Shown here: piece after piece, positions 17,126 through 37,115 of the stretch
How the letters are laid out: every line of letters starts with the position of its first letter
Numbering within the stretch: the first letter of the stretch is position 1
Source: Anaerolineaceae bacterium
Lineage (GTDB): Bacteria > Chloroflexota > Anaerolineae > Anaerolineales > Anaerolineaceae
NCBI GenBank assembly: GCA_040772945.1
Contig: JAXGXE010000001.1
Location: 1,012,862 to 1,076,861, forward strand
DNA: 64,000 bases
Direction of reading: 5' to 3'
Position numbers and translations under genes: made by a program
The notes under the pieces: model-generated
What the model was told of the DNA's origin: nothing
Database searches by the model: none
What the model saw: only the letters and a program-made list of their open reading frames with translations

Positions 17126-17141
17126 TGGCACACTACATGCA
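17126..17141 (+). promoter_or_regulatory. Putative sigma-54 (-24/-12) promoter upstream of the BNR-repeat gene
   Basis: TGGCACACTACATGCA has GG-N10-GC spacing and lies in the 46-nt gap after ltaE. A GAGGTG Shine-Dalgarno and the ATG at 17165 lie just downstream. Confidence 0.55.
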
Positions 17142-17164: not shown

Positions 17165-19273
17165 ATGAACAAGAAACTGTTGTTCGTAATCTTTTTGTTT
17201 GCATTAATAGTTTTTGTGTTCTCTTCATTTAATGTTGATGCGCAAAATTCAGACACAAACGATGATTTTAGGACTATTACTAACGAGACTAATTCATCGT
17301 ATGTAATTGCCTTCCCTTTTTTTAGTCTTGGAAAACAAATCGCTGAACCAATAGGTCCAATTGGGGGAACTTATACATCTGTTCTTACTGACCCCAACAG
17401 CAGCAATATTGTGATTGGTGGTCATTTTCAATCTGGTGTTTATGTCAGTTTTGATGAAGGCACGACATGGTACGCCAGAAATAACGGACTAACAAATTTA
17501 CATATTCAATCATTAGCTATTCATCCAAGGCATGGAGAAATAATCTATGCGGGTACATATGGTGGTGGAGTTTTCCTTTCTACTGATCGAGGTCTAAACT
17601 GGCAGCCATCAAGTGGGGGTACGCTTACTAATCATATTATCTACGATATTGAAATAGATCCAAAGAATCCATCCATTGTTTACGCCGCCTCGCGGATTAG
17701 CGGGAGCTTAGTTGGCTATATTTCCCGTTCTACGGACGCTGGAAGAACGTGGACAATTGTTTATAGGGGCGATTATTTTTCAACGCCAGATTATTTCTAT
17801 GACATTGAGGTTAATCCAGCGAATATAAATATGGTTTACTTTACTGCGCATGAACATGGTTTTTATCGCAGTGTAGATAACGGTTTAACATTCTCTGCGA
17901 TAAATGCTGGGGTTGATGATTTATCTGCCAGAGGTCTGGCGATGAACGAGGCTAACCAAAATGTAATTATCGGAGGCGTTTGGCATGGTGGGGGCGTATA
18001 TAAGAGTGCGAACATAGGTGATTCATGGCAATCATCGCGAACTGGGTTACCTGCTGATGTGAAAATTACTAAAATTAAAGGCGATCCTAATAATGCCTAT
18101 GGTAATCGTTTTTTTGCAACGACCTATGCCAATGGGCTGTATGTAAGCGTAAATAGTGGCGCATCGTGGAAAAACCACGGATGGAATGGTAGCCATATTA
18201 ATGATATTGCGATTTCATCATATTATCCACAAACCTGGTATCTGGCAACACAAAATTCAGGCATGGTGCGAACTCGTGATGGCGGTGAAAATTGGGCAAC
18301 CATCATGGGTGACCTGCGGCTTTACACCATCACTGGGATGCAAGCACTGGAAGACGAGCCTGAAAATATATACGTCGCAATTCATGGCTTAGGGGTACAT
18401 CGTGTGGAATCACCTTTAGATACCTGGACAACACTCTACGATGGTCTAAACGATCTGAACATAACTGGTTTATTTAGTGATGGTAAGTCATTGTGGCTTA
18501 ATAATGGAGATGGTTTGTGGGTGTATGAAAATGATTTATGGCAGTCAATAGACTTGCCAAAACCAAATGACCTGACAATGACTCAGAAACTCCGCTGGGA
18601 AAACAAAGTGCTTGGAGAATCCGATGCCACTTCGCTTGAAATAATGGGGGGTGAAAACGACATCCAAAAAGGTCTTGAAACAAGTAATTGTTTAACGGTG
18701 ACCAGAATGTTGACTTTCCAGGAAAATCTTATCATAGGTACTACTGATGGGGTTTGGTTGCGAAGTGATTCGGGATGGAAAAACCTGGGAATGGAAGGAC
18801 TTTTGATCTATGATATGGTTGCTGATGATAAAAATTCTACTATGTGGGTCTCAGCATGCGATTGTGAGATGAATTGTGAAGTTTATCGATTTCTGGAAGC
18901 TAATCTCATCAAACAATCCAATGGTTTAGATAATACGCGGGTTAACCAATTTCTAATTTCAGGCGACAATTTATTTAGTGCGACCGAGACAGGTGTTTTT
19001 AGCTGGCAGGAAAAGAATACCTCTTGGGAGCTAACTGTAGCTGTGTCTGAAGGTGTATATTCTATTGCACATAACAGGGAAAACCCAAAGATATTGGCTG
19101 CTGGTTCTAAAGGTTTTGTATTGATAAGCCATGATTCTGGTCAAAGCTGGAAGAAAATTAAGACAGAGTACGATTGGCATTATCCATTCCTGTTATTTAA
19201 TTATGCTGAGGATGTAAAGTTAATGTTAGGAAGCATTGAATCCGGAGCATTTATTATGAAAATCGACGAATAA
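17165..19273 (+). CDS. Secreted BNR/Asp-box repeat beta-propeller protein
   Basis: Signal peptide MNKKLLFVIFLFALIVFVFSSFNVDAQ. Repeated S-x-D-x-G-x-T-W boxes: SFDEGTTW, STDRGLNW, STDAGRTW, SVDNGLTF, SANIGDSW, SVNSGASW, TRDGGENW, SHDSGQSW. The track ORF begins at 17147, but the Shine-Dalgarno favours 17165. Confidence 0.8.
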   Translation: MNKKLLFVIFLFALIVFVFSSFNVDAQNSDTNDDFRTITNETNSSYVIAFPFFSLGKQIAEPIGPIGGTYTSVLTDPNSSNIVIGGHFQSGVYVSFDEGTTWYARNNGLTNLHIQSLAIHPRHGEIIYAGTYGGGVFLSTDRGLNWQPSSGGTLTNHIIYDIEIDPKNPSIVYAASRISGSLVGYISRSTDAGRTWTIVYRGDYFSTPDYFYDIEVNPANINMVYFTAHEHGFYRSVDNGLTFSAINAGVDDLSARGLAMNEANQNVIIGGVWHGGGVYKSANIGDSWQSSRTGLPADVKITKIKGDPNNAYGNRFFATTYANGLYVSVNSGASWKNHGWNGSHINDIAISSYYPQTWYLATQNSGMVRTRDGGENWATIMGDLRLYTITGMQALEDEPENIYVAIHGLGVHRVESPLDTWTTLYDGLNDLNITGLFSDGKSLWLNNGDGLWVYENDLWQSIDLPKPNDLTMTQKLRWENKVLGESDATSLEIMGGENDIQKGLETSNCLTVTRMLTFQENLIIGTTDGVWLRSDSGWKNLGMEGLLIYDMVADDKNSTMWVSACDCEMNCEVYRFLEANLIKQSNGLDNTRVNQFLISGDNLFSATETGVFSWQEKNTSWELTVAVSEGVYSIAHNRENPKILAAGSKGFVLISHDSGQSWKKIKTEYDWHYPFLLFNYAEDVKLMLGSIESGAFIMKIDE

Positions 19274-19314: not shown

Positions 19315-20697
19315 ATGCTGATTGTGCTTTCAGACTTGCATTTCGCTGACACCAGCCCCTATACAATGGGTATCAACCGGAGCAACTTGAATCTTCCAGG
19401 ACGGGTGTATAGAACTTTCTTTCGTGAGATTGCTGAATTAATTAAGGAAGGTCAAGTAGAACATATCGATCTGATTCTCGCGGGGGATATCTTTGAGATT
19501 ACCCGGTCAGTCATGTGGCACAATGATCATTTACGTCCTTACGTACATAATGATGAAGTTACTGAGGGCACACCACATGAGCAGCGTATTTTGGACATCC
19601 TTGATGCAATTGCTACTGATCCTAAAGTTGCTGATACAGCGAAAGTTTTTCGCGGTTTAGAAGACTTGTTCGGCATGCCTGTCAAGATTCATTATATTCC
19701 TGGAAATCATGACCGCCTTGCCAATACGACACCAAAAATAAGAAATAAAATCAGGGAATTCTTCGGAATTGAAGAAAATGATGACTACTTTTCCAACCAA
19801 TATTTACATTATCGTGATGGCGAAGCAAGAATATTAATCCGCCATGGTCATGAGTATGACCAATCAAATTTCGGAACAAACCTATCTCTCTGGCCTGAAA
19901 TTCCGACAGTTATTGATAAGAGCTATTATGATATGCCTGTTCTTGGCGATATTGTGACAGTTGAAATTGCCAGCAAGCTCCCGCTGCTTTTTAGAGAGCA
20001 GTACGGTGATGAAGCGATTCTGTCAGATTCAAACCTAAGGCGTATGTATCAACGTCTCATTGACTTTGATAATGTGCGACCAAACAACGCGATGATTAAT
20101 TTTTTGTTTTCAACACCCGGTATTAACAGGAAAGAAATTTGGAAAATTATTGAACCTGTTTTAAGAAATTTACTGGATGAAATTGCGAAGAATAATACCT
20201 TAGCGGATGACATTATGGCATTGGGCAATTTTAAAAAACTAAGTGCAAAAGCCATTATGAGTATTTTTAAAATGCGTATATGGCGACGCGGTTTGCCACT
20301 TTGGATGTTTAATGGATTGACGAACCCGGTGATGAGGAAAACAGGACACGACGCAGATATCACTCTTCTTAATAAAGAAAGCTTTTTGACTGAAGGGAAT
20401 GTTCATTTGCGATGTCTGGTGAGTGGTCATACACACAACGCTACAGTACGCCTCTTAAGTGTTGAAGATGGCGTTGAAAAATACTATATCAATAGTGGCA
20501 CTTTCAGAAACGTGATTACCACAACGCCAGGCCAAAACAAGTTTGGACGCTTACGTTCCAAAGCGCGTATTTTGATTTATGAAGAAGGTGAACAGAACCC
20601 TGAATACAGACGCGAGACCGGATGGTCGTTTGATTTCAACGCGCGTTTGGGATTTGGCGATGACGCAGAGAACTTAATTGACAGTTTAGGAGATTAA
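19315..20697 (+). CDS. Calcineurin-like metallophosphoesterase with an extended C-terminal region
   Basis: 460 aa with motifs LSDLHFAD, LAGDIFE, IPGNHDR, RHGHEYD and SGHTHN. Confidence 0.8.
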   Translation: MLIVLSDLHFADTSPYTMGINRSNLNLPGRVYRTFFREIAELIKEGQVEHIDLILAGDIFEITRSVMWHNDHLRPYVHNDEVTEGTPHEQRILDILDAIATDPKVADTAKVFRGLEDLFGMPVKIHYIPGNHDRLANTTPKIRNKIREFFGIEENDDYFSNQYLHYRDGEARILIRHGHEYDQSNFGTNLSLWPEIPTVIDKSYYDMPVLGDIVTVEIASKLPLLFREQYGDEAILSDSNLRRMYQRLIDFDNVRPNNAMINFLFSTPGINRKEIWKIIEPVLRNLLDEIAKNNTLADDIMALGNFKKLSAKAIMSIFKMRIWRRGLPLWMFNGLTNPVMRKTGHDADITLLNKESFLTEGNVHLRCLVSGHTHNATVRLLSVEDGVEKYYINSGTFRNVITTTPGQNKFGRLRSKARILIYEEGEQNPEYRRETGWSFDFNARLGFGDDAENLIDSLGD

Positions 20698-20979
20698 GTT
20701 CTTAACCCGTTCATAATCCTTTCTACGGACATAAATTCCATAGCTTACTGATGGGGTACCTGAACCTTTATACATGGCTAAGTTGGAAGCAGCATAAGAC
20801 CGAGAATCCATTGCCATGCCTATGCTTCCCCGGGTTTGATAGGTTTTGATGCGGTAAGGGATTTTGTTTTCGATGAGAATGTTTTCCACCCGACGAACTT
20901 CAGCTGCATCTGAGTCCGTTAAAACCTTTTTTAGAAGAGGAATTAACATAAAAAATTCAATAATTCTATTTTGTAGCAT
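20686..20979 (-). CDS. Small alpha/beta protein of unknown function (DUF2007-like?), last gene of the TPR operon
   Basis: 97-aa ORF lying 21 nt after the 935-aa gene, with a GGAGA Shine-Dalgarno. The family assignment is a weak guess. Confidence 0.45.
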   Translation of the reverse strand: MLQNRIIEFFMLIPLLKKVLTDSDAAEVRRVENILIENKIPYRIKTYQTRGSIGMAMDSRSYAASNLAMYKGSGTPSVSYGIYVRRKDYERVKNLIS

Positions 20980-21000
20980 GGCTTTCTATCTCCACAATTG

Positions 21001-23808
21001 TTATTTAGAGGTACTAAGCTTGACCATCTTGCCTTTTTGGTCAAAGGTCATGCGGGCAAACTGATCAAAATTCTTTGAACGATATTCATAGCTCTTTTTT
21101 ACAGTAACGACGTATCGTTGACTCTGTTGAATGGCTTCAAGTGTGTTCTTTCGGTCAAGTTCTGGATCAGCATTGGACTGCATCACGCCCAACAGGGGAC
21201 TAATCGCCATTTTTCCTTCTTCCATGCCTGGCACATAGGATTTGATGACTTTACGAACTTTATCCAAAATTTCATTCGGCATCTCATCCTGCTTGATAAT
21301 CATATCCGGTCTGGAATCGCTGATGGTCTTAATAACGGGGGAGGTCGCTACTCGCACGATGGGTTTGGTCATTTCTCTGATGTCTTTGCTGCTGGCAAGC
21401 GGATCACCGTAAATGACGAAAGATAGAATGGTTTTTTGGTCTTCGCCGTCAAGGAATCCCTGGTCAGCAGTCATTTTGCTGGCGAGAGCCAATTTCGCGC
21501 GCATTAGCGCATAACCAACGGCAACTTCGTTTTTTACATGGGTCCAGAAATGATGTGCCAGGAGATCTGCCGCGACGAGCGTTTTACCTGGTGCGCCGTA
21601 AGCGATGACTGTTGATCCAACAAAAGCACGCGTACCACGCGACAAAAAATTGAGAGCAACAGATTCATTTACTTTTTTGTCGAGAACCCAGGCTCCAAAA
21701 CAAGCCTCACTCAGAACGATTGAGGGCGCGCCGGTTGTTTCGGTAAATGTCTTGGTATTTAATGCTACTGGATATTCAATATCGGTTCCCTCGCGACTTA
21801 GATCACGTTGACCGTACCATTCGTTGCTTTCTTTTAAGCCATGCAAGTTGAAGTAGCCAAATTTGCCATTAGCTTTGCGGTTTTCAAGGATATTTTTGTT
21901 TGTCGTGGGTGGTGAAGTAAGCAGACGTTTCGCATCGTCTATGACGCCAAAAACGCCAGAAGAAGCGGTTTTCCATACCTCAGCACTCACTCCAAGATGG
22001 TTGGCGTTCTGCGGTTTAGTGCTGAACATGCGTAACCAGTTGAACAGCGCACCAAAGAGCGTTGCGAGGAAGTTACTGACAAAACTCTTTTTAGTCTTCT
22101 TTTTGATGCTATATTCATTGTTTAAGAAACGTAATTGTTCGAGAAGATAACCCGCGTCTTTTCCTTTTTCATCGGGTAGACGACCCACGGGCCATTGTTG
22201 GACGAAATAGTTATCGTCAAGCGTCGCGTAGGGGTTATCAGACGGCACATTTGGATCGCTGTCGTCTGTTGGATTGGGTAACAAGTGAAACGGAACAATA
22301 TCATTTCCGCCAACGATGAGTAAAGCGCCAATCATTTCTCCCTTAACGGAGAGTTTGCTGTCAAGGTCGATGAGCGCTCTTTTTAAGGTCTCAGCATTTG
22401 ATGTTTCTAATAAAGTCGTGCCTAATTCATTGGCATTTTCGGGATCGTCAGGAATAAAAACGGTGCTATTCCAACCTGGTAGTTCAAGTATCTTTGCGGA
22501 AAGATTACGGATAGAGTCAATGATGACCTGGCTGGTATTCTCACCGTACTTTTTGTTGAGATTATTACGACTGGTCATGAACACATAGCTGGGGAAGCGC
22601 GTATCAGCGTTGGATAGCTCGGGACGGTTAATTTTACGGGTAACCTGATCGAAATCGGACTGAATTTCATCTAAAGCCGCAACAGTTTGGCGGGTTTCCT
22701 GATTGAAAATACTTTCATCAAAATTTTGAGTTTTAAAATTTCCATCTACTGGAAGTGTTGCAATATCTTCCTTAAAAAATGATGCGGTGGGAATTTCAGA
22801 ATAATCTGCTGCGATATTCGGATCTTCCTGAAGAATATCAAAGAGTTTGCCTGGCCGCAGCGGTACAGTCGCTTGCTCTGATAACAGAGCTTTAATTGCC
22901 TCTTCGGCGCTCATGTCTTTTGTTGAGACAGCTTGGGTTGGCGCGTCAAATAATACTTGAGCAGATGTTGTTGAGTGAGCTGTAGCTGATTGAGCGCCTG
23001 AACTTCCGGAAGCGAGGATGTTCCAGCCTAATTCCGCGGCGACATTCGCTGGCACTGGTAAGTCGAGATAGACCTTAAGGTCTTCGGGCCACAAGGGTTG
23101 ATAAACATGGTTTGGGCCAAGCAAGCGATGAACAACCTGCCCACTGACATCATGCGCGGCAGCCCAGTGTAACTTTTCTACACCAGCGGAATCGTTATCA
23201 TTGCTCATATCTGCCAGGGCAGAAAATATTTTGATCTGTAGACAATCTTTCCAGCGACTGCTGTAGAGCTCAGAAAGAGTTTTTAATAAAGTCGCGTTGC
23301 TCATCTGCAAGACAACATGCAAATGCATAATCGCGGGAAGAGGCAAATTAGGATTGTGAGCGAGACTTTCCAATACAGATTTTTCAGCTGCAGAATATTC
23401 CCCTGCTTCAAACTCAGCGCGAGCCTGATTAAGCGCGTGCAGCCAGGGTGACAGAGATTTATCCGGCACGATGTTGCGGGTTAAATAGCTTAGAGCGGTT
23501 TCAATGTCGATATTGTTATGATTTTTTAGACGGGCACAGAGGGCCAGCGCTTCGGTGAATTCCGGGTCAAAACGAATGAGTCGTTCAAGGGTCGCGATGG
23601 CCATGTCATTATCACCCAGTTCAACCAATGCGGTTGCGTAAATTAAGTTGACCAAAAGGTCGCCTGGGTAGCTTGCCATCCATATAAGACAAGCTTGACG
23701 GACGAACTGGAATTCTCGGTTGCTCATCGCGGTTTGAACAATCGTCAGAAATTTACTGCGTCTGACAATCATAATTTCTTCAGCGTTGTTGATTGGGTAT
23801 GGTCTCAT
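21001..23808 (-). CDS. TPR-repeat protein with a C-terminal clan-CD (gingipain C25/caspase-fold-like) cysteine peptidase domain
   Basis: 935 aa. The N-terminus has TPR-like helices. The C-terminus has LLIVGGNDIVPF, SDNPYATLDD and VGRLP, then FGYFNLHG and, about 45 aa later, SIVLSEACFG (a His-Gly / Ala-Cys dyad layout). No signal peptide. ATGA overlap with the upstream gene. Confidence 0.65.
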   Translation of the reverse strand: MRPYPINNAEEIMIVRRSKFLTIVQTAMSNREFQFVRQACLIWMASYPGDLLVNLIYATALVELGDNDMAIATLERLIRFDPEFTEALALCARLKNHNNIDIETALSYLTRNIVPDKSLSPWLHALNQARAEFEAGEYSAAEKSVLESLAHNPNLPLPAIMHLHVVLQMSNATLLKTLSELYSSRWKDCLQIKIFSALADMSNDNDSAGVEKLHWAAAHDVSGQVVHRLLGPNHVYQPLWPEDLKVYLDLPVPANVAAELGWNILASGSSGAQSATAHSTTSAQVLFDAPTQAVSTKDMSAEEAIKALLSEQATVPLRPGKLFDILQEDPNIAADYSEIPTASFFKEDIATLPVDGNFKTQNFDESIFNQETRQTVAALDEIQSDFDQVTRKINRPELSNADTRFPSYVFMTSRNNLNKKYGENTSQVIIDSIRNLSAKILELPGWNSTVFIPDDPENANELGTTLLETSNAETLKRALIDLDSKLSVKGEMIGALLIVGGNDIVPFHLLPNPTDDSDPNVPSDNPYATLDDNYFVQQWPVGRLPDEKGKDAGYLLEQLRFLNNEYSIKKKTKKSFVSNFLATLFGALFNWLRMFSTKPQNANHLGVSAEVWKTASSGVFGVIDDAKRLLTSPPTTNKNILENRKANGKFGYFNLHGLKESNEWYGQRDLSREGTDIEYPVALNTKTFTETTGAPSIVLSEACFGAWVLDKKVNESVALNFLSRGTRAFVGSTVIAYGAPGKTLVAADLLAHHFWTHVKNEVAVGYALMRAKLALASKMTADQGFLDGEDQKTILSFVIYGDPLASSKDIREMTKPIVRVATSPVIKTISDSRPDMIIKQDEMPNEILDKVRKVIKSYVPGMEEGKMAISPLLGVMQSNADPELDRKNTLEAIQQSQRYVVTVKKSYEYRSKNFDQFARMTFDQKGKMVKLSTSK

Positions 23809-26800
23809 TTTCGTTTTGTTGCCTCTTGGAGATTATTGAGAAGGTTTTGTGCGACAATAGCTGCCAGTTGACGGCGGATGCTCTGGTCAGTGGGGGCAAG
23901 TTGGGCGGCTTTTTGGAGCATCAGCTCAGCACTGCGGAAATCGCGACTGGCTTTATAAGCGTTGGCGGCGTGCACATAAGCGCGGGGGTCTTTGCTGACT
24001 TGTTCAATCGCCTTATTGTAAGTTTTGAGGGCTTGTTCGTTCAAGCGTTGGTCTTCATAACTCTGACCAAGTTCAAGATAAGCCTCGATAAGGCTTGGGT
24101 TTTCTTCAATGGCTTGCTTGAGATAAACCTGAGCCGTGTCATGTTGATTGTATAAGCGGTACAGCGCGCCCAATGCGAGCAAAGTTTCCGCATTTTTGTT
24201 TTCTAATTTCAGGCTTTGGAGCAATGTCTTTTCCGCGTTTTTACTTTGATCAAGTAATAGTTGGTATTGTGCCAGTAAATTAAGCACATTGGGGTAGTCA
24301 GGATGTTCATGTGCGAGGCTGGTTGCCATACGCAAACCAGTTGCGGGGTTATCGCGGGCTTCAATGCGGATACGATAGATCTCAAAAGCGATAGGATCTT
24401 TCGCGATGAGCATTGCGTCCTGAGCCAATTTTTTGGCTTCATCAAAAGACTGGCGGACAATCAGCGATTCTATTTTGACTTTTAAGGCGCGTTCACACTT
24501 GAGTGAGCTATCAATGACTTGGTCGGCGTAAACTATCGCTTGGTCGTATTCCTGGATAATGAAATGTAATTCAGCCAACGATTCAAGCGCGTTCAGATTG
24601 CCGGGCTCGAGGATTAAGAGCTCTTTTTGGTATTCGATCGATTTTTTGTATTCACCTAATTGGCGATTAAGATCCGCGAGGGCTTCCAAAACAGGGATGG
24701 CGTTTGGCTTGAGGGTGTTGGCTTTCTCGTAATCCTTTATTGCGGCATGGTAATCTTTTTCAAGCCATTTGATTTCACCCAATGAATGCCAGTATTGGCT
24801 GTTGTTGGGTTCCAGCTCAATCGCCATGCTAATGCTGTCTTTGGCATCACTAAGTTTGTTTTGTTGCTTCTGGAACATTGCCAAAAGCGCCAGCCATTCG
24901 GGTTCGTCTGGCCAAATGCTTAAGGCGCGTTGAATGGCTTCTTCAGCTTCTTGGGGTTGGTCAGCTTGCGCGATTGCCAGGGCAACATGATACAAAGCTT
25001 GTCGGCTTTGAATAATAGGAATCTTGTTTAAGATTTCCACAGCATTCGCAGGCTGTCTATCGAGGAGTTTAATAGCGTATTGGAACTGCAAATCATCATC
25101 GTGCGGATGGGCAGCCATTATTTGTGAAATGATGCCTGGGTTCTTGGTCACGGCCACTGCCTGTATAGCAAGTTTTCTTGAATAAAGCAATGTGTCCAGA
25201 TTAGTTTCTTCTGGTAAATGGCCGGTGAACTGAGCTTTGCCTATGATTTCTACAGCTACAACACTATCAGCTGGAATAATACCTTTTGCCATTGAAAGTC
25301 GCTCGTCAAAAAGAGCTTCATCGGATTTGGTATCATTCAGGTTTTTAGCTAAACGCTTGCTCACTTTTAATGTCTTTGAAAGAGCTTTCATCCTCGCTTT
25401 ATCTGCGAGGTATTCAGCGAGTGTGAGGTTTAGGCGTGGGTTTGAATCACAAATACGCAAGCACTGCCTAAATATTTGATCGGCGAAGTCCCAGTCCAGC
25501 ATTCTCCAGGCGACGATAGCGACTGCACATTTCTCCCAAAGACTGCTAAATTCTTGAAGTTTAGCCAGATTAGGATGCTCTTCTTCAGGTTGAGAAGCTT
25601 GACGATCTTTCATAATCTGCAGAAATGCCATAGCTTGGTGAGACTGTTGCTGATTTTCTGTTGTAAGCACGCCCACAGCCATGCTGATGAGGTTTTGCTC
25701 ATCTTTGCTTAAGAAGTTTTCAAAAAGAAGACCAGCTTTTGTCATATCAACATTGAGCAAGGCATCCAGTGTCAGTATTCTAATAATATCGATGTCTGTT
25801 GAACTGAGTTGTGCTTTGTTGTTCAAAGACTCTAAAGTGTTATTGAGCTCGTATTGCTCTGCAGTAGATAAGGCTAATTCAGTTTTAATGAGTTGCGCAT
25901 TAGAATTGCCGGGGTCTGATTTTAGTGAAAGATGGGCATGTTTGATTGCCTCAGTATAGTTGCCCATAGCGCGATGTAAAAGTGCGGCTCTGAGCTGAAG
26001 GTTGCTAAGGTCAAATGGCAGATAACCATGGCTTAAATTAGGTGAGAAACTACTTTGCAAGAAGTCAGTATTTCCCTCTTCCGCACGTTTGAGAAGAGGC
26101 TCTAAGGACTGCAGGGCGGGCTGGTATTGTTTATCCTCAGCATATGCGTCCGCCCGCAAGATACTAAAACCTGGTTGGTGAGCGTGTTTTTGTTTTACTT
26201 TATTCAAAAAATCGAGGGCAATTGACGACTGCTGATTGTCTAACAGAGCATAAGCTATTTCGCAGCACTGGAAGTAATTCAGATTTTCATTCTCAGAAAT
26301 GGCGCGTTCCAGAATTTCAGTCGCGAGTTTGGACTCATTCATCTGCATATAGAGACTGGCTACCTTCAGATAATCTGACGTGGAGATATCCGAAGTTTCC
26401 AACATTTTGCTCAAAGTTATTTTTGACTCATCGATGGCATTGTTTTCCAAATAAATTTGTGCCAAAGAGAGATGTAATATCTGTTCTTCTGAACGCAAAT
26501 AGACAGCATCTTTTAAAGCCTGGATGGCGTCATGCGGTCTTTGATTCATTTGCATAAATTTTGCGTACCAGAGAACGTTTTCAGGGTCAGTTGATGCCAG
26601 TTGAAGAGCGGTTTGCGCGCTTGAGATGGCTTCATCAATCAGCCCGGATTTGAGATACGCATGGGAGAGCGCGTGGCGTGATGTGAGATCGTTGGCGTTG
26701 AAAGAGACCGCTTCTTGTAAAGATGCCATGGCGATATCTTCAAAGCCCAAATCAAAGGCGACTAAACCAATTTGTCGCTGTAAATGTTGATAGAAGCGTG

Positions 26801-29132
26801 GCGCTTTGGCTTCAGGTTGATCGAGGAGGTAGATGTAATCCTCATAAGCTTCTTCAAGCTGTCCAAGCCTGGCTTTTACATCGCTTTCTAAAAGCCTCAT
26901 TTCAAAATTAGCGTCGAAGGTTGCTGTGCGGTCTTGTAAACTTGGGAGCAATTCCTGCAGATCTGACATAGTTTGTGTCGATTTTTCGTCATCTTGTTCT
27001 GATAATGTCAGCAGGTTGCGGATGTAAGCCACCAGGGACTCATTGCTTTTTAGACTTTGCCAGGCGAATTTATAAATAACGTTAGCGCGTTGGTTTTCTT
27101 TTCCAGCAGCGAGTGTTTCTGCCAGTACCAAAGCCAATTGAGGATTGCTGTTAAATTCGCTTTCAAAGGGCACAATGGTATCCCAGGCTTCTTCGGTTTT
27201 GCCTTGATTAAGCAAAGCCTTGGTCAAAGCAATACTCGCATCCATACTGTCAGGTTGAATGCCCAAGGCTTGTTTGAGAGTATGCGCCGCTTCGGAGGAT
27301 TGACCATGGTCGAGGTAAAGCTTACCCAGAGCGTAAAGGATTTGAGCGTCATCGGGTAAAACGACCTGTGCTTTTTGCAATGTGCTTAAGGCTTGATCGG
27401 TTTCGCCAAGATTATTCCAAATGCGTGCCAGGGCAAGCCAGCTATCCGTTTTTTCTGGAGCCAAGGCTGACGCTTGTTTGAGGAGGCCGCGAGCTTCATC
27501 AGTGCGCTCACTTTGGATGAGTGCTTCACTGAGAATGACCATTGCTTCACCATCCAGCGCGTCCTGAGATAAATAGTCTTGCGCGATTGGGATAGCGATA
27601 TCGGGTTGACCGGCATCAATAGCAAGTTTGGCATAATAGAGCGAATCTTCACGGGAAACTGATGTATCGCTCTCAATTACCTGGCTGAAGGTTTCAAGCG
27701 CTTTTTGTGGTTCATGCGCTTTGATATAAAGTTGTGTAAGCTCTTGTTTATACTCACGGTTTTTGGGTTCCAGTATTGAAAGCATACTGAAGTTCTGAAT
27801 CGCTTCAGGTAAATAAGCCAATCGTTGCTGGATTTGCCCCGCGAGTTCAATAGCCGCGATATCGTTTGGGTTTTCGAATAAAGCTTTGTTGATTAATTCG
27901 TTGGCAACTGCAAAGTTTTTGACTTTGGCAGAAAATTCAGCAGCAAGTTGTTTGTCAGTTTTACTCAAAAACCGGGATTTCTGGTTCGTCGTGAAAATAT
28001 TGAGTTGCTCAGGGTCAAATTCATGCTCAAAATTGGGTTGAATTGCAGCAAACTGAGGATGGCGAACGGAGAAAAGCCATCTCGTCGTGTTATCAGAGAG
28101 CGTGTTGAGCAAATAGAGTGCTTGATGCACATCGCCTTTGGCAATGAGAAATTCAGCATATTCGCTGATGTAAGTTTCGTTGTCAGGATCCAGGCTGAGA
28201 ATTTCCTCCCAAGTCTTGAGGGCTTCATCAGGCTGGATTTTTTCGAGGTCTTTCGCGGTTTTTTGAAGAAAAGCAACGCGTTCTTTTTTGTGTTCTTCAC
28301 GGGATTTATCAAAAGAACTGATCGCATCCTGGTTCAGACCGGCAAATTGCTCCAATTGTCCACGGGTTCTCAAATCTTCTATAGAAAGCTTTTGCTCTGC
28401 ATCAAAAACTTTTTCATGCTCTTCAGATAAAAATGTCTGGGCGAGCCCTTGCACAAGCTCAATATTTTCCGGATCATCCAAGGCGCGGAGTAAGGCGAGT
28501 TGAAAGTCTTTTGAAGAGTCTAATGAGAGCGTGCTAAAGAATTGGAAACGTTCTTCATCGTCCATTGAAGTTGTGAAAACTACGTGCTTTATTAGTTTGG
28601 CAACCTTGTCCAGCTTTTGAAGAGGAACTTCGTCGATGAGGGTAATTAATGCTTGGTCGTAGTCATTAGCCAAAGCCGGGAGGACCACAAAGGCTGTCTT
28701 CCAAAGCTCAAGTCCTTTGTTCTCTCCGTCAATAAAGTCTAATAATCCATTCCAGCTTTGATGCTCAACGCGGTAATCGCGCAGCGTCAATGCCAACAGC
28801 GCGACATCGCTAAGAGAACTGGGCTCAAGCCCAGTTACTCGGATAGCCTTAAGCAGTTCTTCACTCTTATGCTTGAGTTCATCAGGAACAGTTGTAAATA
28901 ATTCCTGGTAGTCTTCGAAAAACAGACCAGGTCTTAAACTGAATAGAGAAAAGGTGCTGACCTGCCATTTGTCTTGGTCATTACCAGCAAATGCAATCCA
29001 ATCCTCTGGATGCTCAAGGGTGGCGAGCGCCTTCCAAACCAAATGATCCTGTCGAAAACTGCTAATCAACTGGCGCTGGGTTTTTTGATTGAAATGCGTT
29101 TTGAGATGTGATAAAAACCAGTCAATTCCCAT
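23805..29132 (-). CDS. Giant tetratricopeptide-repeat protein (~1775 aa)
   Basis: After a non-repetitive head of about 270 aa, the protein consists of TPR-like A/L/Y/E-rich helical pairs along its whole length. No signal peptide. The track start is TTG at 29144; the ATG at 29132 follows a GGAGGA Shine-Dalgarno. Confidence 0.85.
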   Translation of the reverse strand: MGIDWFLSHLKTHFNQKTQRQLISSFRQDHLVWKALATLEHPEDWIAFAGNDQDKWQVSTFSLFSLRPGLFFEDYQELFTTVPDELKHKSEELLKAIRVTGLEPSSLSDVALLALTLRDYRVEHQSWNGLLDFIDGENKGLELWKTAFVVLPALANDYDQALITLIDEVPLQKLDKVAKLIKHVVFTTSMDDEERFQFFSTLSLDSSKDFQLALLRALDDPENIELVQGLAQTFLSEEHEKVFDAEQKLSIEDLRTRGQLEQFAGLNQDAISSFDKSREEHKKERVAFLQKTAKDLEKIQPDEALKTWEEILSLDPDNETYISEYAEFLIAKGDVHQALYLLNTLSDNTTRWLFSVRHPQFAAIQPNFEHEFDPEQLNIFTTNQKSRFLSKTDKQLAAEFSAKVKNFAVANELINKALFENPNDIAAIELAGQIQQRLAYLPEAIQNFSMLSILEPKNREYKQELTQLYIKAHEPQKALETFSQVIESDTSVSREDSLYYAKLAIDAGQPDIAIPIAQDYLSQDALDGEAMVILSEALIQSERTDEARGLLKQASALAPEKTDSWLALARIWNNLGETDQALSTLQKAQVVLPDDAQILYALGKLYLDHGQSSEAAHTLKQALGIQPDSMDASIALTKALLNQGKTEEAWDTIVPFESEFNSNPQLALVLAETLAAGKENQRANVIYKFAWQSLKSNESLVAYIRNLLTLSEQDDEKSTQTMSDLQELLPSLQDRTATFDANFEMRLLESDVKARLGQLEEAYEDYIYLLDQPEAKAPRFYQHLQRQIGLVAFDLGFEDIAMASLQEAVSFNANDLTSRHALSHAYLKSGLIDEAISSAQTALQLASTDPENVLWYAKFMQMNQRPHDAIQALKDAVYLRSEEQILHLSLAQIYLENNAIDESKITLSKMLETSDISTSDYLKVASLYMQMNESKLATEILERAISENENLNYFQCCEIAYALLDNQQSSIALDFLNKVKQKHAHQPGFSILRADAYAEDKQYQPALQSLEPLLKRAEEGNTDFLQSSFSPNLSHGYLPFDLSNLQLRAALLHRAMGNYTEAIKHAHLSLKSDPGNSNAQLIKTELALSTAEQYELNNTLESLNNKAQLSSTDIDIIRILTLDALLNVDMTKAGLLFENFLSKDEQNLISMAVGVLTTENQQQSHQAMAFLQIMKDRQASQPEEEHPNLAKLQEFSSLWEKCAVAIVAWRMLDWDFADQIFRQCLRICDSNPRLNLTLAEYLADKARMKALSKTLKVSKRLAKNLNDTKSDEALFDERLSMAKGIIPADSVVAVEIIGKAQFTGHLPEETNLDTLLYSRKLAIQAVAVTKNPGIISQIMAAHPHDDDLQFQYAIKLLDRQPANAVEILNKIPIIQSRQALYHVALAIAQADQPQEAEEAIQRALSIWPDEPEWLALLAMFQKQQNKLSDAKDSISMAIELEPNNSQYWHSLGEIKWLEKDYHAAIKDYEKANTLKPNAIPVLEALADLNRQLGEYKKSIEYQKELLILEPGNLNALESLAELHFIIQEYDQAIVYADQVIDSSLKCERALKVKIESLIVRQSFDEAKKLAQDAMLIAKDPIAFEIYRIRIEARDNPATGLRMATSLAHEHPDYPNVLNLLAQYQLLLDQSKNAEKTLLQSLKLENKNAETLLALGALYRLYNQHDTAQVYLKQAIEENPSLIEAYLELGQSYEDQRLNEQALKTYNKAIEQVSKDPRAYVHAANAYKASRDFRSAELMLQKAAQLAPTDQSIRRQLAAIVAQNLLNNLQEATKRK

Positions 29133-29147
29133 TATGTCCTCCAACGC

Positions 29148-29480
29148 TTACGCGGCACTGAACAAAACAGGTTTCAACAGAAAGTAAGCGACTGCAAGTA
29201 AAACCAAACCAAGAAAAACAAAGAAAATGCCGATACCTGTATTGGATTGGGTCAGATCATTCAATGAACTTAAAAGCATTGACGCGTTACCAACCAGACC
29301 CGATACGCCATCGACGAGACCCTTTTGGGCTAACTTCGCTGTTGATTCCGCGATAGTACGAATGTTTTTATTCATTGCCTGGCGCGCGAGAATGATAATG
29401 CTGATTACAACGCAAATAATGCCCAGCAAAAAAATGATACCAGCAATGGTAATAACGATTTGGACATTGTTTTCTAACAT
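29148..29480 (-). CDS. Small two-helix membrane protein, first gene behind the sigma-54 promoter
   Basis: 110 aa with hydrophobic helices at both ends. A GAGGAG Shine-Dalgarno precedes the ATG. Confidence 0.6.
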   Translation of the reverse strand: MLENNVQIVITIAGIIFLLGIICVVISIIILARQAMNKNIRTIAESTAKLAQKGLVDGVSGLVGNASMLLSSLNDLTQSNTGIGIFFVFLGLVLLAVAYFLLKPVLFSAA

Positions 29481-29514
29481 AGTAACTCCTCTATAGTTCC
29501 TTCAAGTCCTATGT

Positions 29515-29530
29515 TGCAACTACTATGCCA
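29515..29530 (-). promoter_or_regulatory. Sigma-54 (-24/-12) promoter
   Basis: The minus strand reads TGGCATAGTAGTTGCA, which is TGGCA-N6-TTGCA with exact GG-N10-GC spacing. It lies in the 58-nt gap between the stop of the enhancer-binding-protein gene (29539) and the next ATG (29480). Confidence 0.75.
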
Positions 29531-29538
29531 AACAGGGT

Positions 29539-30726
29539 CTATGATGAGCTTTTCCGCTTATAGTTTACAATCTCCAAAGGCAGGTGATTGAGCTCGATAA
29601 TGGGGTCATCACAGAATAAAACTGCCCGCTCGATGGTGTTGCTAAGCTCACGGATATTTCCGGGCCAGTCGTAATTAACAAGTGCTTCCATCGCTCTGGG
29701 ACTGATATCAATGATGTTTGAACCCTGGCGCATATTGAAGCGGCGAACAAAGTAGCCAACCAGTTCAGGAATGTCATCTTTGCGTTTCACGAGTGTCGGA
29801 AGATCCAGGTCAACGACTTTGAGACGGTAGTAGAGGTCTTCACGGAATTCATGTTTTTCAATCATTCTGCGAAGATCACGGTTTGACGCGGCAATGATTT
29901 GCACGTCCACCTTAATCAGGTTTGTGCCTCCTACACGGCGGAACGAGCGTTCTTCAAGCGCGCGCAGGAATTTGGCTTGCAGATCAATTGGCATAGACGA
30001 AATTTCATCCAGGAACAAAATGCCACCATCAGCGACTTCCATTAAGCCTATTCTGCGTTGGGTCGCGCCGGTGAATGCTCCCGATTCATGACCAAACAGC
30101 TCTGATTCAAACATGGTGGGCTGTATTGCCGGGCAGTTAATATCAATGAAAGGTTTGTTTGCTCTTGGTCCGCTTTGGTGGATGAACCGTGCCAAAACTT
30201 CTTTGCCTGTCCCAGTCGGCCCAGTAATAAGCGCTGACACGCCCATTTCAGAAGCGCGACGGGCTAATTCGACAACATGAGCCATTTCTGGTGATGTGCC
30301 AATAATGAATTGTACATTCTTGCCTTGTGACGCGCGCCAATGATTGAGTTCGCGGCGCATACTGATCATGTCGTTGGCGCGTTTAACGGCGGCTTCTAAC
30401 TTGATGAGATCAAGAGGTTTCTCGATAAAGTCTTGCGCGCCGGCTTTCATCGCGTCAACAGCCATGCTTACTTCACCATGCGCGGTGATGATAATCACCT
30501 GTGGGCGCATCGGTAAGGTGGCGACATCTTCCAAAAGATGGGGCCCATAGCCGTCTGGCAGCTGGACATCCAAAATGATGACATCCGCCTTGCCTTCAGC
30601 AATCACTTTACGGGCATCGGCTAAGGTACCTGCTTCAATAACTTCGTAGCCTTTCGTGCGCAAATAATTACTTATTACCATTCGCGCGGTTTCTTCATCG
30701 TCAACGACTAAAATGCTATTTGTCAT
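29539..30726 (-). CDS. Sigma-54-dependent response regulator (REC plus AAA+ activator) lacking a C-terminal HTH DNA-binding domain
   Basis: 395 aa. REC domain (VVDDEE, IILDVQLPDGYG), Walker A GPTGTGKE, GAFTGA loop (ESGAFTGA), Walker B ILFLDEI. The protein ends about 35 aa after PGNIRELSN. Confidence 0.85.
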   Translation of the reverse strand: MTNSILVVDDEETARMVISNYLRTKGYEVIEAGTLADARKVIAEGKADVIILDVQLPDGYGPHLLEDVATLPMRPQVIIITAHGEVSMAVDAMKAGAQDFIEKPLDLIKLEAAVKRANDMISMRRELNHWRASQGKNVQFIIGTSPEMAHVVELARRASEMGVSALITGPTGTGKEVLARFIHQSGPRANKPFIDINCPAIQPTMFESELFGHESGAFTGATQRRIGLMEVADGGILFLDEISSMPIDLQAKFLRALEERSFRRVGGTNLIKVDVQIIAASNRDLRRMIEKHEFREDLYYRLKVVDLDLPTLVKRKDDIPELVGYFVRRFNMRQGSNIIDISPRAMEALVNYDWPGNIRELSNTIERAVLFCDDPIIELNHLPLEIVNYKRKSSS

Positions 30727-37080: not shown

Positions 37081-37115
37081 TTTGGAAAGCTTGTGTTGTT
37101 AGTCAGCGATTATGA
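35967..37115 (+). CDS. IS481-family DDE transposase
   Basis: 382-aa ORF with an HTH (VSKTARIFKISRATVYKAI) and an rve core (VQIDLKY, WTAIDVHSR, FTVDRGEEF, NRPGHPEDNPHVERSHRT). The probable start is MKDITH at 35988. The ORF reads 35 nt past the IS end. Confidence 0.8.
   Translation: MILRCTLMKDITHLDYHALRRDSPKTARRAVLQVLKAHNGNVSKTARIFKISRATVYKAIEKDAEKNLDDSSRAPHTVHNKTDTELEARVLQIRKQTGYGPLRIKEELEELDQISLSEHTIRNILRRNRDEAKPRHQKTANKTKRHFVDWYSAKAFEVVQIDLKYIVDQKALSMEQIHHIYTKNLPLYQWTAIDVHSRFRLIGYSYEKSWTNGLAWIFWVLSWLRSHGVQSHIFFTVDRGEEFGGKSWFKIYELRKLLSDFGCTFIQNRPGHPEDNPHVERSHRTDDEEFYIPRLLSVASKKDFFFEAMNYLYYYNVVRRHSALERKSPYAHLSKTTRGIDDKIRFIPPIFLDHLAVQLGDWSGYHVLASHLWKACVVSQRL
37081..37096. repeat. 16-bp direct repeat TTTGGAAAGCTTGTGT (right flank)
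   Basis: Identical to 35860-35875. Confidence 0.85.

Follow-up and report, generated by a model that had tools for sequence, protein, structure and literature searches.

Operon layout

What would lead a Chloroflexota bacterium to place a giant repeat protein and a putative cysteine protease behind a sigma-54 promoter, directly next to genes for sigma-54 itself, a sensor kinase and an activator? This question is raised by a 64,000-nucleotide stretch of DNA from an Anaerolineaceae bacterium, hereafter the window, the relevant features of which are collected in Table 1. Anaerolineae, which are filamentous, abound in digesters, sediments and wastewater; to our knowledge, their cell biology is almost unknown and few of them are genetically tractable.

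Table 1 Coordinates of the features discussed, as positions in the 64,000-nucleotide window
Feature	Position	Strand	Remarks
Candidate second sigma-54 promoter TGGCACACTACATGCA	17126-17141	plus	One mismatch to consensus
Secreted BNR/sortilin-like protein gene	17165 (likely start) to 19273		Downstream of TGGCACACTACATGCA; Pfam BNR/Sortilin-Vps10
Metallophosphoesterase gene	19315-20697		Downstream of TGGCACACTACATGCA and the BNR gene; Pfam Metallophos
97-aa protein gene	20686-20979	minus
TPR-linker-C25 cysteine protease gene	21001-23808	minus	935 aa
Protease, C-terminal alpha/beta domain	21004-21297	minus	Residues 838-935; ends K-L-S-T-S-[K/R]-COOH
Protease, C25 (gingipain-like, clan CD) catalytic domain	21304-22611	minus	Residues ~400-835; predicted from Pfam and fold match
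Protease, predicted catalytic dyad	His656, 21841-21843; Cys703, 21700-21702	minus	Codons verified
Protease, disordered linker	22702-23019	minus	Residues ~264-369; pLDDT <50; consensus undefined
Protease, N-terminal TPR domain	23029-23769	minus	Residues ~14-260; Pfam TPR_19, TPR_14; helical repeats with pLDDT >90
Giant TPR ORF	23805-29144	minus	1779 aa if counted from TTG
sm110 gene	29148-29480	minus	110 aa
Predicted sigma-54 -24/-12 promoter TGGCATAGTAGTTGCA	29515-29530	minus	Exact match to TGGCAY-N5-TTGCW
NtrC-type sigma-54 activator gene	29539-30726	minus	395 aa; Pfam Response_reg, Sigma54_activat, AAA_lid_14
Soluble sensor histidine kinase gene	30716-32689	minus	657 aa; PAS, unassigned region, PAS, HisKA, HATPase_c (Pfam)
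rpoN (sigma-54)	32693-34105	minus	470 aa; Pfam Sigma54_AID, CBD, DBD
Promoter-like element TGGTATAATTCTTGCA	34139-34154	minus	Upstream of rpoN

The four tightly packed minus-strand ORFs that a first-pass annotation of this DNA had described behind a -24/-12 promoter are all present, with the sizes and spacings it gave. The sm110 stop codon lies 15 nt before the ATG of the giant TPR gene, the stop of which overlaps the start of the protease gene (ATGA), and a further 21 nt separate the protease stop from the start of the 97-aa gene. The 15-nt spacing refers to the ATG at 29132, which is preceded by a GGAGGA ribosome-binding site, yields a product of 1775 aa (23805-29132), and is likely to be the true start in preference to the TTG.

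As a unit of four genes the operon holds only in part: sm110, the giant TPR gene and the protease gene are conserved, whereas the 97-aa gene is confined to the closest relatives, adjoining the protease gene at loci L005-L007 and L017 and being displaced at L018. Its product gives a weak DUF2007 match (E 0.0016, below cutoff). The gene is probably co-transcribed with the operon in the window, and from its distribution we class it as a lineage-specific accessory and not a core member.

A predicted cytoplasmic protease of family C25

The protease motifs quoted in the first-pass annotation, including the strands carrying His and Cys, are found in the 935-aa ORF, and its proposal of a clan CD cysteine protease was taken up with profile searches and structure prediction, which recovered a clan CD fold. 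Matched against Pfam and PDB sequences, the full-length protein returned TPR hits only, with no Pfam C25 match at E <=0.01 and no gingipain found by its sequence profile in the PDB; because both searches missed C25, the family assignment rests on a match of the isolated domain and on the fold. The domain by itself matches Peptidase_C25 (PF01364) at 35.5 bits (cutoff 23; E 9e-9), and orthologue P0119 does so with 73 bits (E 2.8e-20) across profile positions 9-371. Structural modelling gave a mean pLDDT of 75 for the full-length protein, and a pLDDT of 89.5 with a pTM of 0.91 for the catalytic domain. The best Foldseek match is Kgp (gingipain K), with an E value of 7e-9 in one search and of 2.8e-12 in another, the latter with TM scores of 0.45 and 0.53 and approximately 10% sequence identity; Csx29 TPR-CHAT, SAVED-CHAT and separases follow, and all six matches obtained with the domain model at E <=1e-3 belong to clan CD. 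Predicted strands precede both His656 and Cys703. Homologues of the protease are 34-99% identical to it, and some are named 'C25 family cysteine peptidase' by NCBI. Consequently, we assign the 935-aa protein a predicted clan CD, family C25 protease domain.

Given a sequence similarity of only about 10% to characterised C25 enzymes, it might be argued that the domain is catalytically dead and that the operon encodes a purely structural scaffold. The dyad is nevertheless invariant, both NLHG (His656) and EAC (Cys703) being retained in 41 and in 80 homologues, and many surrounding residues are likewise invariant across the 80, although these share no more than 33-93% identity with the window domain. 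Since purifying selection on an active site would give such a pattern, we consider a dead domain barely credible.

Around the catalytic domain, conservation is uneven: the linker is poorly conserved among homologues, and the C-terminal tail shown in Table 1 is kept in 40 of 41 orthologues. No signal peptide (N-terminal hydrophobic segment), lipobox or membrane helix was found in either the protease or the giant TPR protein, which is consistent with the cytoplasmic location first suggested for both. The protease shares with the gingipains of Porphyromonas gingivalis (Kgp, RgpB) its PF01364 match, its closest fold and the order of a His-Gly followed by an Ala-Cys, but it has neither their signal peptide and pro-domain nor their Ig-like domain and C-terminal domain for type IX secretion (there is no N-terminal hydrophobic segment and no CTD family match). 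Instead, its catalytic domain is preceded by an N-terminal TPR domain and a disordered linker and followed by an alpha/beta domain that ends in an STS[R/K] tail, and the protein is predicted to be cytoplasmic in a monoderm Chloroflexota host, as opposed to a member of the Bacteroidota. If this is correct, a scaffolded protease of gingipain fold would serve a housekeeping or developmental role in the cytoplasm, far from the secreted virulence proteases by which family C25 is defined.

The membrane protein and the giant TPR protein

The two hydrophobic helices previously noted in the 110-aa protein are apparent in a hydropathy scan, as transmembrane helices that enclose a conserved stretch of about 45 aa (…KLAxKG…GLVGNAS…LN…), a positively charged loop predicted to face the cytoplasm. 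GLVGN is invariant in an alignment of 64 sm110 orthologues. By hydropathy, sm110 is the only protein of the cluster with membrane segments, none being predicted in the others. It matches no family in Pfam or NCBIfam, and its homologues were found solely in Anaerolineae-type sources. We reject the JGI label 'oxaloacetate decarboxylase gamma subunit' carried by sm110, which reflects a resemblance of transmembrane helices only.

The second protein was described as about 1775 aa of almost uninterrupted TPR without a signal peptide, and this description stands: Pfam TPR families extend from approximately residue 300 to the end, with matches up to E 5e-51. Its head (residues 1-300) matches no Pfam family, and a homologue search with residues 1-420 returned three proteins and nothing useful, the word index being swamped by TPR. 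Among 44 orthologues, most are 1770-1846 aa long (extremes 1694 and 1729), and they share 21-60% identity yet are collinear and almost free of gaps, the last 120 aa forming the most conserved stretch. The giant TPR protein is the fastest-evolving component of the module. Its gene is absent at loci L038 and L040, and since two species do without it, the scaffold is not strictly required.

The sigma-54 promoter and its regulators

The promoter assigned to the operon begins 9 nt past the activator stop codon and ends 34 nt ahead of the sm110 ATG. A lone consensus match is not beyond chance in 64 kb, because 6 sites with at most one mismatch were observed in the window against 7.7 expected. Conservation of position is what decides the matter: GGCA-N6-TTGC occurs at the same place in all 67 orthologous loci (the GG-N10-GC element being kept in 67/67), in strict form in 63 and with AGG or CGG at -24 in the remaining 4, amid variable flanking bases, and we accept the element as a genuine, predicted sigma-54-dependent promoter on these grounds, as it had originally been read. 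Moreover, a matrix built from these promoters exceeded 20 bits in 1.59 Mb of related DNA only at the promoters themselves. No sigma-70-like site was seen in the intergenic region between activator and sm110. Neither was a terminator seen downstream of the activator gene, ahead of the promoter, so transcripts of that gene may read through into the operon; the initial proposal of expression only when kinase and activator fire is accordingly too strict.

The product of rpoN scores 232 bits against TIGR02395, under the cutoff of 277, contains the RpoN box ARRTVAKYR, and carries a conserved, zinc-ribbon-like CPxC-N9-CPxC insert in region II. The kinase gene starts 3 nt past the rpoN stop; its product has AtoS as best NCBIfam match, below cutoff, and no membrane helix by hydropathy scan. 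Overlapping the kinase gene by 11 nt, the activator gene encodes a protein with GAFTGA at residue 216 of its AAA+ domain and without a C-terminal HTH DNA-binding domain, the Pfam domains running to the last residues, and its orthologues are 391-396 aa long. Both sigma-54 and an AAA+ activator with GAFTGA are therefore encoded immediately upstream of the promoter. Indeed, rpoN adjoins the module in every locus with enough flank, and the view that the operon has a dedicated rpoN, kinase and activator is borne out by their travelling with it in essentially every genome examined, together with the conserved promoter.

A receiver and AAA+ (GAFTGA) protein without HTH, paired with a soluble kinase, is also found in Chlamydia CtcB/CtcC and Helicobacter FlgS/FlgR, and precedent for activators without a DNA-binding domain is cited by Francke et al. 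2011 (PMC3162934), who list sigma-54 in Chloroflexi for Herpetosiphon only. The present case differs in that rpoN, kinase, activator and target operon form one conserved block, and in that the targets are a TPR/protease set (with ftsZ in sister clades) as opposed to flagellar or late chlamydial genes. The result would be a compact and unusually clean sigma-54 regulon, with sigma factor, sensor, enhancer-independent activator and targets in a single block, an arrangement that would make signal and output directly testable.

Further promoter-like sites occur in the window. We read the element upstream of rpoN (TGGTATAATTCTTGCA) as more probably a sigma-70 promoter of the extended -10 type (TGnTATAAT), serving the rpoN-kinase-activator operon, than as a sigma-54 site; a similar element was also observed upstream of rpoN at locus L040. 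An exact sigma-54 motif at 61026-61041, which is antisense to the ORF that contains it, is most probably a chance match. The candidate TGGCACACTACATGCA is found at the same distance from the start codon before the orthologous gene at L005 and L006, and its support as a sigma-54 promoter is weaker than that of the main promoter.

A neighbouring secreted BNR protein that may have its own sigma-54 promoter, together with the connection of sigma-54 with the cell exterior made by Francke et al. (PMC3162934), could suggest a role in envelope or exopolymer sorting, with the C25 domain acting as a PorU-like transpeptidase, and the TPR protein and two-component pair as analogues of PrsT, PrsK and PrsR. 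The PEP-CTERM/exosortase system similarly combines a sigma-54 two-component system with a large TPR protein, and its members are top NCBIfam matches here: PrsT is the best match of the giant TPR protein (237 bits), the activator scores 333 bits against the PEP-CTERM response regulator PrsR, and the kinase weakly matches PrsK (77 bits). All three scores nevertheless fall below their cutoffs (312, 503 and 300, respectively), and the neighbourhood showed neither an exosortase gene nor PEP-CTERM cargo. Moreover, PorU and PrsT act outside the cytoplasm, whereas both large proteins lack a signal peptide and a lipobox, so that the TPR protein has no lipoprotein signal. We regard a sorting role as decidedly improbable.

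Distribution and conserved gene order

Protease homologues occur in at least 577 tblastn-confirmed stretches from GTDB species genomes. All 80 loci that were kept are named Anaerolineae, Anaerolineaceae or Chloroflexota, with Ornatilinea apprima and Bellilinea caldifistulae as cultured carriers. In clusters formed at 50% identity, 396 match the protease at E <=1e-30, and the best 150 representative matches are all full-length orthologues, down to E 1e-94. As judged from these sequence searches, the module is widespread in the class Anaerolineae (Chloroflexota). Its conserved order is rpoN, PAS kinase, activator without DNA-binding domain, promoter, sm110, giant TPR, C25 protease, and the six genes keep it in 67/67 Anaerolineae loci with enough flank, save the two without a TPR gene. 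The trio of sm110, TPR and protease genes, for which the first-pass annotation had called for a comparison across related genomes, therefore remains together and travels with rpoN, kinase and activator across these loci. Every related genome examined has a single copy of the module, the neighbours of the locus are housekeeping genes, and GC content is unremarkable; we conclude that it is chromosomal and vertically inherited.

No system-level assignment was returned by PADLOC, NCBIfam or Pfam, and no literature was found on sigma-54, C25 or ftsZ regulation in Anaerolineae. The earlier impression that no characterised system has such a composition thus agrees with these searches, and the module is undescribed in the literature that we found.

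This setting bears on the suggestion of a conflict module, in which the TPR array would act as sensor and the protease as effector of abortive infection or another anti-phage response. The pairing of TPR with caspase-like effectors is reported, in papers by Kaur and Aravind, to be frequent among the conflict systems of multicellular bacteria, and the giant TPR protein is, as noted, the fastest to evolve. In addition, Csx29, the TPR-CHAT protein of the type III-E Craspase, is a structural neighbour of the protease (third in both fold searches) that likewise joins an N-terminal TPR region and a clan CD protease in one chain, and likewise is held on a large partner and switched by a signal, as we propose for the window system. 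The window protease differs from Csx29 in being C25-like, with no CHAT match in Pfam, and in being controlled transcriptionally via sigma-54; furthermore, no Cas7-11, crRNA array, Csx30/Csx31 or cas genes were found near the module, nor were NTPase, nuclease or CRISPR genes. PADLOC-DB 2.0 gave 0 families for the five proteins tested. Against an anti-phage role also stand the single copy and conserved order in every related genome examined, the housekeeping neighbours and normal GC, the presence of the cell's sigma-54 gene within the module, and a giant TPR protein that is collinear and nearly without gaps, neither shuffled nor hypervariable. We therefore think such a role very improbable, and of the stress, developmental and conflict roles first offered, conflict is the least likely given vertical inheritance and a housekeeping setting.

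An ftsZ operon with sigma-54 promoters in a sister clade

In a sister clade, the module is adjoined by an operon u423-ftsZ-s73-s62-u262 that has its own sigma-54 promoter. At locus L085, the protease gene and u423 are 55 nt apart, and a perfect -24/-12 site occupies part of this gap; at L087, sigma-54 sites precede u423, ftsZ and sm110. Against the TIGR00065 equivalog, the ftsZ product scores 378-381 bits, above the cutoff of 295. The strict motif is present upstream of u423 in 73 of 80 metagenome loci. Of the remainder, most show the variant TGGCCC-N5-TTGCA, L167 has only a looser TGGTCT variant, and at L137 the upstream sequence is missing. In 55 of 56 loci u423 is followed by ftsZ, in 34 of 44 the protease gene ends less than 400 nt upstream, and 10 loci have an extra sigma-54 site directly ahead of ftsZ. 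Across 762 kb, 87 of 92 strict motif hits precede u423, ftsZ, sm110 or rpoN. The same sigma-54 switch therefore appears also to drive ftsZ in many relatives.

A second tie is provided by s73, which hhalign aligns to the C-terminal domain of the protease with a probability of 96.5% (E 7.9e-10; reversed control 0.7%), and for which an HMM search of the window gives the protease ORF as sole match. We take s73 to be a free-standing copy of that domain. No Pfam or NCBIfam family was found for u423, s62 or u262, apart from a marginal CWB2-like match at the C-terminus of u423 (E 0.003). The adjacency of ftsZ and module could partly reflect inherited gene order, an explanation weakened by the existence of two different arrangements, the shared promoters and the shared domain. 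The ftsZ operon is absent from the window, and because it lies within 10 kb of the module in 0 of 84 Anaerolineaceae-type loci, a link to division in the window's own lineage is an extrapolation.

This missing linkage is one reason to entertain a protease that an intracellular stress signal would induce, either to degrade many proteins under starvation or other stress or, as a switch for programmed cell death, to kill or fragment filament cells, without a specific tie to division. The kinase is a cytoplasmic PAS sensor, and in both Craspase and SAVED-CHAT, structural neighbours of the protease, TPR-fused clan CD proteases are signal-activated executioners. We nevertheless judge this explanation unlikely, since in many lineages the module and the ftsZ operon have sigma-54 promoters and a C-terminal domain in common, which ties the two together, and a collinear scaffold of fixed length with a dedicated membrane anchor suggests a defined assembly as opposed to bulk degradation. 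The ftsZ link in the sister lineages points instead to division or morphogenesis.

Proposed role and mechanism

With somewhat more belief than doubt, we favour a signal-gated proteolytic complex at the membrane, tied to septation or to filament and envelope morphogenesis, and not to defence or bulk proteolysis; we do so because the sister-clade ftsZ operon has the same type of sigma-54 promoter and the s73 domain. In such a complex, the cytoplasmic kinase would sense an intracellular cue and phosphorylate the activator, which would act from solution, as do CtcC and FlgR, to open sigma-54 holoenzyme waiting at the -24/-12 site. The resulting sm110, giant TPR protein and protease may then come together on the cytoplasmic side of the membrane, anchored by the conserved sm110 loop and scaffolded by the giant TPR protein. 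Docking of the protease would involve its own TPR domain, its C-terminal tail or both, and once docked the protease might make site-specific cuts in recruited substrates.

A more daring proposal, which we put forward tentatively and think doubtful, is that a private sigma-54 circuit, made up of sigma factor, soluble kinase and activator and with no regulon beyond a few neighbouring promoters, gates both ftsZ with its orphan partners and a membrane-anchored, TPR-scaffolded protease of gingipain fold that would serve, like separase, in division or morphogenesis, with the STS[R/K]-COOH domain common to the protease and s73 acting as a docking or autoinhibition switch. Separase (C50, clan CD) similarly couples a very large helical-repeat region to a caspase-fold protease, with a possible connection to division in the present case, and yeast and human separases are significant fold matches of the catalytic domain. 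Here, scaffold and protease are separate polypeptides, unlike in separase, and nothing resembling securin was identified; the two are alike in architecture, as opposed to demonstrated common descent or function. We know of no earlier case in which a two-component switch governs ftsZ through sigma-54 promoters. If the ftsZ link is true, it would be the first such control of ftsZ, and would offer a bacterial analogue of separase logic at division.

As to substrates, kinship with gingipains and the conserved C-terminal R/K lead us to guess at Arg/Lys specificity at P1. Finally, the locus defines a set of conserved orphan families, namely sm110, u423, s73, s62 and u262.

Operon layout, promoter and upstream regulators

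All four minus-strand ORFs of the first-pass annotation were recovered at their positions (see table), together with their tight packing: 15 nt separate the gene for sm110, the 110-aa membrane protein, from that for the giant TPR protein, an ATGA stop/start overlap joins the latter to the protease gene, and 21 nt lie between the protease gene and the 97-aa ORF. A start at ATG 29132, giving 1775 aa, is more likely than the TTG for the giant TPR protein, because a GGAGGA ribosome-binding site precedes it. The two hydrophobic helices ascribed to sm110 were found as membrane helices, and none were detected in the giant TPR protein, protease, kinase or activator. The -24/-12 promoter placed ahead of the operon is likewise borne out, since TGGCATAGTAGTTGCA matches the consensus exactly and GG-N10-GC is kept between the activator and 110-aa genes in all 67 of 67 loci compared. 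This promoter begins 9 nt past the activator stop codon and ends 34 nt short of the sm110 ATG, and a search of the activator-sm110 intergenic region for a sigma-70-like site or terminator found neither. A position matrix derived from the module promoters exceeds 20 bits only at those promoters in 1.59 Mb of related DNA.

Features of the protease module and its surroundings (window numbering)
Feature	Position	Strand	Remarks
IS transposase-like gene	9276-10559	minus	HTH + rve_3 integrase core
TGGCACACTACATGCA	17126-17141	plus	second sigma-54-like element
BNR/sortilin-like secreted protein	17165-19273	plus	signal peptide, MNKKLLF…
Metallophosphoesterase	19315-20697	plus	downstream of BNR/sortilin-like gene
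ORF 4	20686-20979	minus	97 aa
ORF 3 (protease)	21001-23808	minus	935 aa
ORF 2 (giant TPR)	23805-29144	minus	1779 aa from TTG
ORF 1 (sm110)	29148-29480	minus	110 aa
Sigma-54 -24/-12 promoter TGGCATAGTAGTTGCA	29515-29530	minus	exact consensus match
Activator	29539-30726	minus	receiver + AAA+ with GAFTGA
Kinase	30716-32689	minus	soluble, PAS/HisKA/HATPase
rpoN	32693-34105	minus	three sigma-54 Pfam domains + RpoN box
TGGTATAATTCTTGCA	34139-34154	minus	upstream of rpoN
IS transposase-like gene	35967-37115	plus	HTH + rve_3 integrase core

The rpoN, kinase and activator genes are translationally coupled. An HTH domain is absent from the activator, which stops after the AAA+ lid, and precedents for sigma-54 activators without a DNA-binding domain exist in Chlamydia CtcC and Helicobacter FlgR (PMC3162934). 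Such activators act from solution, and the arrangement therefore fits a regulon of very few promoters.

Upstream of rpoN, in the 32-nt gap that precedes the listed, divergent hflX ORF, TGGTATAATTCTTGCA scores as a weak sigma-54 site but reads as a putative extended -10 sigma-70 promoter (TGnTATAAT). The sigma-54 protein itself carries a conserved, zinc-ribbon-like CPxC-N9-CPxC insert at residues 53-69, in the stretch that links region I to the core-binding domain; the insert is also present in the relatives L038, L040, L041 and L085; we know of no such insert in characterised sigma-54 proteins.

Family and fold of the protease

Searched against Pfam at full length, the protease returned TPR matches only and no C25, while residues 400-935 alone matched Peptidase_C25 at E 9e-9 (35.5 bits, cutoff 23) and a distant orthologue did so over nearly the whole profile (E 2.8e-20). 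An AlphaFold model of the full-length protein (mean pLDDT 75) falls into four parts: first comes the TPR domain (pLDDT >90), then a linker that is disordered over 264-369, then the catalytic domain, of alpha/beta type, and at the C-terminus a further alpha/beta domain, which is small. Modelled separately from 80 sequences, the catalytic domain reached a pLDDT of 89.5 and a pTM of 0.91, and all six of its PDB matches at E <=1e-3 are clan-CD peptidases: gingipain K (E 2.8e-12, TM 0.45 and 0.53), Csx29 TPR-CHAT, SAVED-CHAT, and yeast and human separase. Csx29 also aligns across the TPR and protease parts of the full-length model. Neither His656 (NLHG) nor Cys703 (EAC) varies in two alignments, of 41 and 80 homologues, in which identities fall as low as 33%. 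The clan-CD assignment, proposed from the sequence at first reading, holds because profile, fold and conservation agree, and profile, dyad and predicted fold place the catalytic domain in family C25. A catalytically dead protease is scarcely credible with an invariant active site.

Signal peptide, pro-domain and type IX secretion domain are all absent, and the predicted protein is not a gingipain-type secreted enzyme. The same absence of export signals, together with NCBIfam scores under the cutoff, makes a PEP-CTERM/PorU-type envelope or sorting system quite unlikely.

Distribution and conservation of the module

Homologues of the protease occur in at least 577 tblastn-confirmed stretches of GTDB species genomes and form 396 clusters at 50% identity (E <=1e-30). 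The 80 loci retained are all named Anaerolineae, Anaerolineaceae or Chloroflexota, and cultured organisms, Ornatilinea apprima and Bellilinea caldifistulae, are among them. With regard to synteny, the expectation that sm110, giant TPR and protease genes remain neighbours and travel with the regulators is upheld, as the order rpoN, kinase, activator, sm110, giant TPR, protease recurs in all 67 of the 67 loci with enough upstream flank, bar two that lack the TPR gene. The 97-aa gene, in contrast, is present as an ORF in the operon but is confined to the closest relatives and does not belong to the core that had been proposed.

Across 44 orthologues the giant TPR protein is collinear and almost gap-free despite identities of 21-60%, and its length is mostly 1770-1846 aa (extremes 1694 and 1729); because of this it appears to fit a defined architecture and not a drifting repeat array. 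Conservation is highest in its last 120 residues. In sm110, a positively charged loop between the helices (…KLAxKG…GLVGNAS…LN…) is highly conserved; no known family was matched, and all homologues come from Anaerolineae-type sources. Some of these (see P0297, P0306, P0334, P0349, P0364) are labelled 'Na+-transporting methylmalonyl-CoA/oxaloacetate decarboxylase gamma subunit' by JGI, yet Pfam OAD_gamma gives E 0.54, and the label appears to be a false transfer via a transmembrane-helix match.

Several loci depart from the common arrangement. In two related species (L038, 9867-10001; L040, 9873-10001) the giant TPR gene is cleanly missing, with none within 10 kb, and the protease gene directly follows the 110-aa gene at a distance of ~100 nt. 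The trio in L088 (9949-18152) lies apart from rpoN, kinase and activator, adjoining ribosomal protein L25 and smpB, and still has a promoter, CGGCACGGACCTTGCA, upstream. Finally, two to four ORFs stand in place of a single giant TPR gene in the metagenome-assembled L014, L024, L025, L031 and L047, a split that may reflect assembly frameshifts or real pseudogenes.

A connection to ftsZ

More divergent members possess a second operon adjoining the module, consisting of ftsZ and genes for four orphan proteins in the order u423, ftsZ, s73, s62, u262. Its ftsZ scores 378-381 bits against TIGR00065 (cutoff 295), and ftsA is not found upstream of ftsZ in this operon. In L085 a perfect TGGCACATCTCTTGCA occupies the 55-nt gap from the protease stop to u423, and in L087 the ftsZ operon sits between activator and sm110, with sites before u423, ftsZ and sm110. 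A metagenome scan for u423 returned 80 loci, 73 of which have the strict motif ~20-100 nt from the u423 start; most of the others have the variant TGGCCC-N5-TTGCA, while L167 has only a looser TGGTCT variant and L137 has no upstream sequence. u423 is followed by ftsZ in 55 of 56 loci, the end of the protease gene lies <400 nt upstream in 34 of 44, and ten loci have an additional site immediately before ftsZ. Over 762 kb, 87 of 92 strict motif hits precede u423, ftsZ, sm110 or rpoN.

Furthermore, s73, encoded just after ftsZ, shows homology over its entire length to the C-terminal domain of the protease (hhalign 96.5%, E 7.9e-10; reversed control 0.7%), both end in [ST][ST]S[RK]-COOH, and the sole match of the s73 profile in the window is the protease ORF. 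Taken together, the occurrence of two different arrangements of the genes and the sharing of promoters and of a domain argue for a functional connection between module and ftsZ operon, as opposed to mere inherited adjacency. An important limit on this connection is that, within reach of the module, u423 and ftsZ are absent from the window and from the 84 Anaerolineaceae-type loci.

The ftsZ operon extends over 12689-16381 in L085 and 4656-9891 in L087, and is also present in L089-L168. The protein u423, of unknown family, has a PLEPGGDYWDT motif, and its C-terminus gives a marginal match (E 0.003) to CWB2, the cell-wall-binding domain of S-layer proteins in Clostridioides.

Proposed mechanism and comparison with known systems

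Sequence and comparison establish a conserved block of sigma-54, kinase and putative enhancer-independent activator, a -24/-12 promoter that is likewise conserved, a predicted clan-CD fold whose dyad is intact, and the lack of export signals. In the mechanism that we propose, the PAS kinase would sense a cytoplasmic cue and the operon would be switched on; sm110 would anchor the assembly at the membrane, the giant TPR protein would serve as a scaffold of fixed length, and the protease, docked by way of its TPR domain, its C-terminal tail or both, would cleave recruited substrates. Known cases of a TPR groove with its ligand are Hop-EEVD and Pex5-SKL, and the conserved terminal Arg/Lys carboxylate could be another such ligand. 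Alternatively, the terminal Arg/Lys could fill an Arg/Lys-specific S1 pocket as a product-like plug, and, more speculatively, s73 might compete for that site. Of the processes that the module might control, septation or filament/envelope morphogenesis is the most likely; generic stress proteolysis or cell death is a rather unlikely function for a module tied to an ftsZ operon and built as a defined assembly. We hold the proposal as a whole, mechanism and septation or morphogenesis together, with moderate confidence, the identity of the module and its predicted sigma-54 control with much greater confidence, and its putative division role with less.

Although the catalytic domain is C25, the system is not a gingipain/type IX secretion system; nor is it Craspase, its likeness to Csx29, as to separase, being one of architecture only, and it is no PEP-CTERM regulator set either. 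Literature searches found nothing on the module, whose protease homologues are named 'hypothetical protein', 'TPR repeat protein' or 'C25 family cysteine peptidase' in databases, and among Chloroflexi sigma-54 was recorded only in Herpetosiphon by Francke et al. 2011 (PMC3162934). We rate the system as a signal-gated, repeat-scaffolded clan-CD protease within an unusually compact sigma-54 regulon; should the ftsZ link be general, there is a real chance that it is more than this.

Genomic surroundings

Genes around the module in the window are of the housekeeping kind (IleRS, pseudouridine synthase, HflX, MtnA-like, SAH hydrolase), the GC content is unremarkable, and PADLOC returned no match for the module. 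A role in phage defence is very improbable in view of vertical inheritance, this housekeeping context and the empty PADLOC result.

IS transposase-like genes lie on both sides of the module, one of them just past hflX. The second sigma-54-like element, TGGCACACTACATGCA, stands 23 nt ahead of the likely start of the BNR/sortilin-like gene, and in L005 and L006 the orthologue is preceded by this element at the same spacing. The BNR-metallophosphoesterase pair is convergent with the protease operon and restricted to close relatives.
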